Shown: positions 52,158-56,438, counted from the stretch's first letter. The stretch: DNA of 64,000 bases from Escherichia coli (GCF_048403405.1 NZ_CP183129.1); one strand, 5' to 3'. Program-made: numbers and translations. The notes: a model not told the origin generated them from the letters alone.

Positions 52158-53450
52158 TCACAGATACGGCGACCAGGCAGGGAATTTGACCTGTCCATCA
52201 GTTGCCGGAAGACGCGCTTTGAAACGCCCATCTGTAGAAACCAAATTCAGCACGGATCCCATCCCCTGAGAAGAGCTGTAGATTACCATAGTGCCGTTAG
52301 GTGCCAGACTTGGCGTTTCATCCAGGAACGTGGACGACAGAACTTGTACGCCTCCCGTTGCCAGATCTTGTTTGGCAATGTGCTGCTGCCCACCATTGGA
52401 GCTGACCATTACCATAAATTTACCGTCGCTGCTGACATCCGCATCCTGGTTCTGCGAACCTTCCCAGGTAATACGTTGTGGCGCACCGCCGTTGATATTC
52501 ACTTTATAAACCTGTGGACGACCGGCCTGGTCAGAAGTAAATGCCAGGTTCTGGCTGTCCGGGAACCAGGTCGGTTCGGTATTGTTACTGCGACCATCCG
52601 TCACCTGGCGGATCTGACCAGAAGCCAAATCCATTACGTACAGGTTCAGACTACCGGTTTTCGACAAGGCGAATGCCAGTTTGCTGCCGTCTGGCGAGAA
52701 TGCAGGTGCACCGTTGTGACGCGGGAATGAAGCCACCTGACGTACAGCGCCATTTGCCAGCGTTTGGATGACCAGCGCGGAACGACCGCTTTCGAAGGTC
52801 ACATAAGCCAGTTTAGAACCGTCTGGTGACCACGCCGGAGACATCAGCGGCTGCGGTGAACGGTGAACGACAAACTGGTTGTAACCGTCATAGTCAGATA
52901 CGCGCAGTTCATACGGGAACTGACCGCCGTTGGTCTGAACAACGTAGGCAATACGGGTACGGAACGCACCTTTAATGCCGGTCAGTTTTTCAAACACTTC
53001 ATCACTGGCGGTATGACCAGCATAACGCAGCCACTGCTTGTTCACTTTGTACGAGTTCTGAGCAAGTACAGTACCCGGTGCGCCGCCAGTGTCAACAAGT
53101 TGATAAGCAACATTGTAAGAACCATCCGGATTCGGAGTGACCTGACCGACAACTACAGCGTCAATGCCCAGTGCGGACCATGCAGCTGGTTGTACTTCCT
53201 GCGCACTACCCGGCTGCTGTGGCAGACGAGCGCGATCTAACGGATTAAATTTACCGCTGTTACGCAAGTCAGCAGCAACGATGCCGCCAATATCTTCAGG
53301 TGCCGCACCAGGACCCGCCCACTGGAAAGGAACAACACCAATAGGACGACCGGAATCTACACCGCTGTCGATCACAATGCGGACTTCAGCATGCAGAACT
53401 GATGCCCACAGTATGAGAAAACCAAATGCTACTCGTAATGCCTGCTTCAT
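52158..53450 (-). CDS. tolB: Tol-Pal system periplasmic protein TolB
   Basis: 430 aa; signal peptide and beta-propeller. Confidence 0.96.
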
Positions 53451-53582
53451 CATATCTCCCTTATCTGGACCGATGGCCCACGATAATTTAGCAGAATGTT
53501 AACAAACTAAAATACACAAAACTACCAGAACCCCGTGGCAACCGGTGCCTGATGTTGACCGTCGGAACAGTCAACATCGCGA

Positions 53583-54848
53583 TTACGGTTTGAAGTCCAA
53601 TGGCGCGTTTTTGAACACTTCATATACTGCCTGGCTTGGTGGTTTCGGGATCTTCGCAAGTTTAGCTGCTGCCAACGCAGCCTGACAAAGTGCGGGATCG
53701 CCACCTTCAGGTTTGATATCCAGTAACATACCATCGGGTGCCAGTTTTATGCGCAGCGTACAGGTTTTGCCTGCATAGGACGATGCGTCATAGAACTTAC
53801 TTTCGATAGCAGATTTAATCTGCCCGGCATAGTTATTGATATCGGCCCCTGATGCGCCATTGTTTTTAGTATTACCACTCCCGGCTGGCGAAGCATTGTT
53901 CCCTTTCGCCCCTCCCCCCGTTTTCGGTGCATTCTTACCAGAGCTTAGCTCACCGAAAATATCATCTGCCTCTGCGGCAGCTTTTGCTGCAGCGGCTTTT
54001 TCAGCTGCTGCTTTTGCAGCTGCCGCTTTTTTGTCTGCGGCGGCTTTTTCTGCCGCTGCTTTCTTATCAGCTGCTGCCTTTTCAGCAGCCGCTTTTTCTG
54101 CTGCTTTTTTGTCGGCTGCAGCTTTCTCTGCTGCCGCTTTCTTATCAGCTGCAGCCTTTTCAGCAGCCGCTTTCTTCTCAGCTTCTGCTTTGGCTTTTTC
54201 AGCAGCTTCAGTTGCCGCTTTCTTTCTTGCTTCAGCTGCAGCTGCTTCTGCCGCTTCCGCTTTCTTCTTCAGTGCCGCCGCGGCTGCCTCGACTTTTTTC
54301 TGCGCTTCGGCTGCGGCTTTGGCGGCTTCTGCTTCTGCTTTTTTCTTCGCGTCTGCAGCCGCTTTCTTCGCAGCTTCTTCCGCAGCTTTAGCATCCGCTT
54401 CGGCCTTCGCTTTAGCATCTGCCGCCGCTTTCGCTGCCGCTTCTTCCGCTTGCTTCTGCTTTAACTCGGCCTGTTTTGCGGCTTCTTCAGCCTGCTTTTT
54501 CTGTTCCTGAGCAGCTAACCGCTCTTTCTCAAGTTGCTTCAGGCGTTCCTGTTCAGCCGCTTGTTTCTCACGCAGTTCTTCAGCAGCCTGCTGTTCCTTC
54601 ATCTTGCGCTGCTCATCAGAACGCTTCGCGCTTGATTCCTGGCTTTGCATGCGTTTGTACTGCTCAACTACCGCACCTGAATCAACCATGACAGCGTCGA
54701 TGGATGAACCACCGCCGCCTCCGGCTGAAGCTTCTATATTCTCATCGAACGAACTCCAGATCAGCGCCGCAAATAAGATGACATGCAGCACTGCTGAAAT
54801 AATTATCGCCCGCTTGAGCTTGTCGTTTTGTTCGGTTGCCTTTGACAC
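53583..54848 (-). CDS. tolA: Tol-Pal system protein TolA
   Basis: 421 aa; N-terminal TM anchor, long Ala/Lys/Glu-rich repetitive helical domain II, C-terminal domain III. Confidence 0.95.
   Translation of the reverse strand: MSKATEQNDKLKRAIIISAVLHVILFAALIWSSFDENIEASAGGGGGSSIDAVMVDSGAVVEQYKRMQSQESSAKRSDEQRKMKEQQAAEELREKQAAEQERLKQLEKERLAAQEQKKQAEEAAKQAELKQKQAEEAAAKAAADAKAKAEADAKAAEEAAKKAAADAKKKAEAEAAKAAAEAQKKVEAAAAALKKKAEAAEAAAAEARKKAATEAAEKAKAEAEKKAAAEKAAADKKAAAEKAAADKKAAEKAAAEKAAADKKAAAEKAAADKKAAAAKAAAEKAAAAKAAAEADDIFGELSSGKNAPKTGGGAKGNNASPAGSGNTKNNGASGADINNYAGQIKSAIESKFYDASSYAGKTCTLRIKLAPDGMLLDIKPEGGDPALCQAALAAAKLAKIPKPPSQAVYEVFKNAPLDFKP
54055..54173 (-). repeat. Imperfect tandem DNA repeats (about 78-bp period) encoding the TolA Ala/Lys-rich domain
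   Basis: Near-identical copies of GCTTTCTTATCAGCTGC.GCCTTTTCAGCAGCCGCTTT at 54055-54094 and 54131-54173. Confidence 0.7.
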
Positions 54849-54912
54849 TCTCGGTTTCCAAAAACTGTTCGCCTGTTACCCGCTCTCTTTCAAGCAAGGG
54901 AAACGCAGATGT

Positions 54913-55341
54913 TTAGATAGGCTGCGTCATTAAACCAACCGATTTCACACCCGCACTATGTAACAAGTTCAGTGCTTTAATTATTTCATCGTAAGGCACA
55001 TCTTTTGCGCCACCGATCAGAAAGACCGTTTTCGGGTTGGCCTTGAAACGGCTGGACACTTCCGCCACCACCTGCTCTGGTGGCAAACGCTCCAGGCGAT
55101 CTTTCTCAACCACCACGGTGTACTGACCAATACCAGACACTTCAACAATCACTGGCGGATTATCGTTACTGCTAACCGCCTGTGATTCAGTAGCGTCTGG
55201 CAGATCGACCTCCACGCTCTGGGTGATGATGGGCGCTGTCGCCATAAAGATCAGCAACAGCACCAGCAGTACGTCCAGCAACGGTACAATGTTGATTTCG
55301 GACTTGAGATCGCGACGACCTCGTCCACGCGCTCTGGCCAT
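54913..55341 (-). CDS. tolR: Tol-Pal system protein TolR
   Basis: 142-aa ORF. Confidence 0.95.
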   Translation of the reverse strand: MARARGRGRRDLKSEINIVPLLDVLLVLLLIFMATAPIITQSVEVDLPDATESQAVSSNDNPPVIVEVSGIGQYTVVVEKDRLERLPPEQVVAEVSSRFKANPKTVFLIGGAKDVPYDEIIKALNLLHSAGVKSVGLMTQPI

Positions 55342-55344
55342 GGC

Positions 55345-56438
<1,094 letters not shown>

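Follow-up and report, generated by a model that had tools for sequence, protein, structure and literature searches.

The closest described system is the tolA repeat tract of Escherichia coli itself. Zhou, Michiels and Aertsen (2012 PLoS One; PMC3477136) described this tract as 13 imperfect repeats of 15 or 18 bp and built chromosomal synthetic alleles of 2, 6, 8, 13, 26 and 39 units. An earlier survey by PCR sizing and sequencing (Zhou, Vanoirbeek, Aertsen and Michiels 2012 Res Microbiol 163:316), to the extent that it is cited in PMC3477136, found 8–16 copies in 234 isolates, 66% of which carried 13 units. The tract, its variation between strains, its contraction and its phenotypes are already known from this work (PMC3477136).

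In the protein literature, the repeat motif of domain II goes back to Levengood, Beyer and Webster (1991 PNAS), as far as that study is reviewed in PMC7391070 and PMC10666116. There it is given as K1–2 A3–4 (E/D), the same motif as in the present gene, occurring thirteen times in an extended helical domain. These papers treat the repeat as protein structure, whereas here it is viewed as an unstable DNA tract. Domain II forms an elongated helical stalk by which the C-terminal domain reaches TolB near the outer membrane, and its deletion abolishes function, while replacement by a disordered linker abolishes outer-membrane stabilisation (PMC10666116, PMC12583513, PMC7391070). The helicity is attributed to circular dichroism and X-ray scattering in the passages of the same three papers that cite such data, and full outer-membrane stabilisation needs a structured domain II (PMC10666116).

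More distant relatives are the contingency loci and in-frame variable-number tandem repeats, such as the surface-protein repeats used in MLVA, which share with tolA the head-to-tail in-frame units, the polymorphism between strains, the elevated rearrangement and the graded phenotype. Classical contingency loci are switched on and off by frameshifts in repeats of 1–8 bp, whereas the 15/18-bp units of tolA stay in frame, the gene remains functional and the effect is graded. In another species, Salmonella, the tolA difference studied by Lahiri et al. in 2011 reportedly concerns the number of domain II repeats. According to the summary in PMC8787014, that work (Microbiology 157:1402) compared Salmonella Typhi with Typhimurium, close relatives whose tolA genes differ, and the difference was linked to detergent and bile resistance.

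The locus studied here lies in a stretch of 64,000 nucleotides (the window) and carries the 13-unit allele; its unit layout is identical to that of MG1655, and nothing essential separates it from the published tract. What is added here is a survey of 5,425 genomes, an explicit 78-bp higher-order repeat with a 20-bp exact repeat, and two minor indel sites of 24 bp and 6 bp, neither of which is mentioned in PMC3477136. The best overall explanation, which we regard as almost certain, is an intragenic variable-number tandem repeat in tolA that gains and loses units in frame, with antisense open reading frames (ORFs) as non-coding by-products. The tract illustrates, in textbook style, how a bacterium can alter a stalk that spans its periplasm: the length changes through an in-frame repeat.

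Gene identity and anatomy of the repeat

The gene and its neighbours are placed as follows.

53583–54848, minus strand: tolA coding sequence, 421 aa with a GTG start, from the ORF call and Pfam
52158–53453, minus strand: tolB, with TolB_N and PD40 Pfam matches
54913–55341: tolR, with an ExbD Pfam match
55345–56037: tolQ, with a MotA_ExbB Pfam match

On the grounds of its Pfam domain, its SHLS motif, its neighbours and its identity to a RefSeq entry, the gene at 53583–54848 is tolA, as an earlier note on this DNA had proposed; TolA is the force transducer of the Tol-Pal system. The encoded protein consists of an N-terminal membrane helix with the SHLS motif, the helical domain II and a C-terminal TolA domain, the last of which matches PF06519 over aa 325–419 (E = 2e-38; 130.9 bits against a cut-off of 25). 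The SHLS motif of the TolA/TonB helix, described in PMC10666116, can be read from the sequence as S18, H22, L29 and S33 within RAIIISAVLHVILFAALIWSS of the N-terminal helix. At the DNA level, the gene shows no difference from the RefSeq-annotated tolA of strain YDC107 (100% identity), and its identity to the K-12 gene is 98.8%. The gene order tolQ–tolR–tolA–tolB is present, and the RefSeq annotation of identical DNA is concordant.

Two minor observations concern the tolB side. In the mechanical ORF, tolB begins with MMKQ... and has 431 aa, one codon more at the start than the RefSeq gene of 1293 bp and 430 aa, a matter of start-codon choice only. A sigma-70-like promoter match on the minus strand (53688–53659; TTGTCA, 18 nt, TAAACT) falls inside tolA at its 3' end, some 200 bp before tolB begins; an internal tolB promoter has reportedly been described around this place.

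The repeats are located within the Ala/Lys/Glu-rich domain II, again in line with what had been noticed at first, and consist of the following elements.

53970–54176, minus strand: core tandem tract of 13 in-frame 15/18-bp units of the form K1–2 A2–4 (E/D/A), aa 225–293, the '13TR' allele of the literature
54177–54224, minus strand: three degenerate upstream units, KKAATEAAE KA KAEAE, aa 209–224, also involved in natural deletions
54020–54178, minus strand: 78-bp higher-order repeat (five units, 26 aa), Tandem Repeats Finder (TRF) score 255, 2.0 copies, 88% matches
54154–54173, minus strand: 20-bp exact direct repeat, copy 1, AAAGCGGCTGCTGAAAAGGC on the sense strand, at the unit 1/2 junction
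54076–54095, minus strand: 20-bp exact direct repeat, copy 2, at the unit 6/7 junction, 78 bp from copy 1

From aa 225 to aa 293 the units read KKAAAE KAAAD KKAAAE KAAAD KKAAE KAAAE KAAAD KKAAAE KAAAD KKAAAA KAAAE KAAAA KAAAE, the second and third of which correspond to TR2 and TR3 of PMC3477136, as placed by means of the published stop-codon primer. The degenerate units upstream belong to the unstable region as well: the allele of O157:H7 strain F7508 is without 54144–54224, a deletion with a 12-bp direct repeat (lag 81) at its boundaries, and the involvement of these units in contractions has likewise been reported (PMC3477136).

The periodicity was judged against a null in which the codons were shuffled within the segment (1000 shuffles), so that the amino-acid and codon composition was kept. 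Over 53960–54199, the self-identity at lag 78 is 0.686 (z = 5.0), while the maximum reached by the shuffles over all lags is only 0.647 (n = 1000); therefore, the repeat exceeds mere low-complexity composition. Lags of 15, 33, 78 and 111 all stand at z = 4.7–5.0 in this segment. The peaks at 33, 78 and 111 arise because units 3–7 sum to 78 bp (18+15+15+15+15) and units 1–2 to 33 bp. TRF reports periods of 15, 30, 33, 45 and 78 in overlapping rows across 53971–54191, with the top score for period 78. No exact direct repeat in the tract is longer than 20 bp; the one of this length recurs after exactly 78 bp, and in K-12 and most of the other alleles compared it is kept with equal spacing. Thus, the tract is a head-to-tail repeat beyond chance, with a base unit of 15/18 bp and a higher-order period of five units. 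The period of about 78 bp that the earlier note had given to the repeat is real, with 88% matches in TRF and an identity beyond that of 1000 shuffles, but it describes the five-unit order and not the base unit.

Further upstream in the gene, from 54200 to 54478, lag 78 is not significant against the codon-shuffle null (z = 1.6), and a weak 24-bp repeat alone stands out (z = 3.3; TRF 54373–54435). The periodic tract is confined to about 53970–54224. The interval first marked out for it, 53990–54480, does contain all indels of the 13 alleles compared below, but the tract fills only about a third of it: at its high end the interval runs about 250 bp too far, and at its low end it leaves out 20 bp of the tract.

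Length variation among E. coli genomes

In a megablast search with the whole of tolA against 5,426 complete E. coli genomes, the gene was present in 5,425, and a match was absent in one. As a side observation, of the 5,430 tolA matches in this collection, two come from records that are classified as plasmids. Lengths were taken from 60 rows at even steps down the ranking, a systematic sample in which 59 matches were full-length. A narrower query was less suitable: it is covered to at least 80% in only 4226 of the 5424 records, because indels interrupt the alignments, as expected, and allele lengths are unreadable where this happens.

Forty of the 59 full-length sampled matches (68%) measure 1266 bp, the remainder being 1185, 1215, 1218, 1227, 1251, 1263, 1290, 1296, 1299 or 1311 bp long, and all lengths differ by multiples of 3. 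This amounts to at least 11 length classes between 1185 and 1311 bp in the systematic sample. Both the share at the 13-unit length (68% versus 66%) and the size range, equivalent to 8–16 units, agree with the published survey. The 1311-bp allele, found in six of the 59 sampled rows, completes a second full 26-residue block; five of these rows are identical to one another. Alleles are largely linked to lineages, as exemplified by O157:H7 at 1185/1215 bp. The length of tolA is a usable typing marker, though a lineage-linked one.

For a closer comparison, one example per length class was taken from RefSeq, and the proteins and DNA of 13 alleles were aligned. All gaps fall at aa 143–283, and the remaining protein is almost invariant. 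The DNA indels measure 15, 24, 30, 33, 45, 48 and 81 bp, sizes that are sums of 15/18-bp units or correspond to a 24-bp unit. In pairwise alignments they are flanked by direct repeats of 0–39 bp, mostly of at least 5 bp, some of 0–5 bp. The last two units (KAAAA KAAAE) are unaltered in all 14 alleles, which matches the remark in PMC3477136 that TR12–13 are never part of contractions, possibly since they lie within the YbgF/CpoB-binding segment. Outside of length, 50 of 57 single-nucleotide polymorphisms (SNPs) are synonymous in the tolA frame, which is under purifying selection. The tract is therefore an intragenic variable-number tandem repeat whose copy number differs between strains in frame; the variation between strains that had been predicted for this DNA exists, and the comparison of domain II length clearly yields a repeat number that is not identical in all strains.

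Some of the changes are recent. The tolA genes of O157:H7 strains F7508 and Z1768 show 0 SNPs and identical 300-bp flanks, and are separated by a single 30-bp indel of two units; those of AF23 and E302 show 0 SNPs and a single 48-bp indel. Such pairs demonstrate that copy number changes on short time scales within lineages. In the tract, AF23 is distinguished from O157 F7508 by one indel only; it measures 78 bp, has a perfect direct repeat of 68 bp at its flanks and amounts to an extra five-unit block. Given this block and the second 26-residue block of the 1311-bp allele, the 78-bp unit appears to be itself a unit of natural rearrangement besides the 15/18-bp unit.

Two further sites vary in length to a minor degree. 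The first is the 24-bp repeat already mentioned.

54373–54435, minus strand: 24-bp repeat site encoding ADAKAKAE, TRF period 24, two copies here, with much rarer variation

ADAKAKAE occurs once in strain A37 and three times in GPEC1185. Over 54290–54540, identity is below 95% in about 77 of the 5424 records, which is consistent with an indel at this site. The second is a 6-bp GCAGCT (Ala-Ala) indel at about 54240–54251 (aa ~200–203), the sole tolA difference between two assemblies labelled ATCC 8739 (L013 and L014; 423 versus 421 aa). This pair was considered as a case of within-strain change and set aside: the 421-aa gene is the K-12 allele, the two genomes differ by 62 kb, and the difference may reflect a mislabelled strain rather than a change in the laboratory.

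Stalk length, selection and the route of rearrangement

The tract encodes the C-terminal part of the stalk that links the inner-membrane anchor to the TolB-binding domain across the periplasm. Combined with the 78-bp order, the 15/18-bp units provide many short in-frame direct repeats, between which unequal recombination and, to a smaller degree, slipped misalignment add or remove whole units. Stalk length shifts by 5–27 residues in this way with the frame unbroken, and might tune the reach or the transmission of force across the periplasm. Published links of stalk length extend to bile-salt tolerance, acid and osmotic tolerance and the entry of filamentous phage, a picture that is unchanged here.

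Whether nature makes use of this variation is a separate matter. The polymorphism could be effectively neutral, with lengths drifting around a stalk size that the cell tolerates, instead of an adaptive contingency locus, a reading that we consider possible though somewhat doubtful. It would account for the concentration of about two thirds of genomes at one length and for the way in which alleles follow lineages, from O157:H7 to the identical 1311-bp block, and it fits the observation that SDS and salt tolerance are fully restored by synthetic alleles of 6 to 39 units (PMC3477136). Deoxycholate tolerance, however, rises with the number of units over four orders of magnitude, and at high salt and pH 5 the best tolerance is found at 6–13 units, very long and very short alleles being worse (PMC3477136). 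Constraint is also evident in the alleles themselves, all of which are in frame with the last two units spared, and the dominance of the 13-unit length suggests stabilising selection. Phage fd plates best on 13 units (PMC3477136). Most of these phenotypes were seen with synthetic alleles (2, 6, 8, 26 and 39 units), the majority of which lie outside the natural range. A phenotype of copy number is known from synthetic alleles of 2–39 units (PMC3477136), and the tract may play the role of an adaptive contingency locus in nature.

As to the route by which units come and go, it is unlikely that the length variation stems mainly from RecA-independent replication slippage and not from recombination. 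Many natural indels are bounded by just 5–13 bp of direct repeat, a homology shorter than what RecA is usually considered to use efficiently, and this would favour slippage. The experimental evidence is weighted differently. A null allele with stop codons in TR3 reverts by contraction at 6.9e-5, which falls to 1.0e-5 in a recA mutant, rises 3.3-fold in the absence of the anti-recombinase uvrD and stays the same in mutS (PMC3477136). The recA mutant still retains 15% of wild-type contraction, and novel alleles were recovered there (PMC3477136). The earlier description of the repeats as prone to slippage may hold for this RecA-independent remainder of about 15%, but contraction is mainly RecA-dependent, enhanced in uvrD and unaffected in mutS. 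The remainder, along with the fact that homology is very short at some natural junctions, suggests that slipped misalignment operates as well. The 0–5 bp of homology at several natural indels is too short for RecA exchange, and probably some of these events are slippage, or the alignment misses their true history.

The preferred reading, in which recombination between direct repeats predominates, also bears on the products. In the portion of PMC3477136 that deals with the revertants, almost all of them carry a 5-TR deletion. Exchange between the two copies of the 20-bp repeat would remove five units including TR3 and could in this way explain the predominance of that class, as far as it is described there. 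A deletion exactly between the 20-bp repeats is absent among the sampled natural alleles. Expansions were not recovered experimentally, and the rate of about 7e-5 refers to contraction only (PMC3477136).

It is very improbable that the length classes are sequencing or assembly artefacts of a low-complexity region: the two assemblies labelled ATCC 8739 do differ only by 6 bp in an Ala run, where error or mislabelling is possible, but all length differences are multiples of 3 built from whole units, identical alleles recur in many independent assemblies (e.g., the five 1311-bp rows), a single sequencing read can span the tract of about 250 bp, and the PCR sizing and sequencing of 234 isolates, in the form relayed by PMC3477136, gave an equal range of 8–16.

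Reading frames antisense to tolA

On the strand opposite to tolA, two long ORFs run across the repeat.

53836–54510, plus strand: antisense ORF of 224 aa, TTG start, Ala/Phe/Ser low-complexity translation, judged spurious
53927–54391, plus strand: antisense ORF of 154 aa, GTG start, Leu/Pro/Gln/Ser-rich, judged spurious

The third plus-strand frame is stop-free over 53949–54464 (171 codons), so that all three plus frames are open for 171–225 codons. Over 53960–54560, the plus strand contains only 7% A, and TAA, TAG and TGA are rare there because GCN, AAR and GAR (Ala, Lys, Glu) make up most of the sense codons. When the codons of domain II were shuffled and the repeats thereby destroyed, the longest antisense open stretch had a mean of 178 codons (5–95% range 115–298), compared with 225 observed. 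Shuffled codons without repeats give equally long ORFs; therefore, composition and not repetition makes the antisense ORFs. The earlier note had ascribed them to the repeats: the ORFs of 224 and 154 aa do exist, but codon shuffling reproduces their lengths and composition is the cause.

The antisense ORFs are non-coding by-products of this composition, and the prospect that either of them (53836–54510 or 53927–54391) is a real overlapping gene is close to nil. Apart from the openness of all three plus frames, which shuffled domain II displays equally, such a gene could appeal to the 37 of 45 SNPs that are synonymous in the 224-aa frame. This number mirrors that of tolA (38 of 45) because the two frames share wobble positions, so that it holds no independent information, and the SNP coding test was retained only for the other two antisense frames, where synonymous changes amount to merely 5 of 45 (154-aa frame) and 2 of 45 (third frame). 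Neither ORF has a Pfam match, a promoter-like site was not found on the plus strand upstream of them, and a reading of the sequence upstream of the 224-aa ORF revealed no Shine-Dalgarno-like element. The starts are TTG and GTG only, many terminator-like hairpins lie on the plus strand, and the ORFs are annotated in none of the 14 RefSeq records inspected. It is far-fetched that translation of the 224-aa ORF yields a hydrophobic protein rich in Ala, Phe and Ser, which would co-vary in length with the tolA repeat number.

Long stop-free antisense frames are to be expected over Ala/Lys/Glu-rich coding regions and should not be taken as genes. Conversely, counts of synonymous SNPs cannot serve to dismiss an antisense ORF in a frame that shares the sense wobble positions.

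Two observations on possible RNA features of the region may be added. A search of 53000–55500 on both strands for Rfam families (E <= 1) returned SCARNA4 (20.8 bits against a gathering threshold of 60) and mir-6132 (19.6 against 112), which were rejected as chance-level matches to eukaryotic families. Between 53966 and 54333, there are ten terminator-like sites composed of a hairpin and a T run, nine of them antisense to tolA on the plus strand, whereas shuffles predict 2.7. Palindromic GCAGC/GCTGC Ala codons, followed by the complement of Lys AAA codons, seem to give rise to these sites as a by-product.
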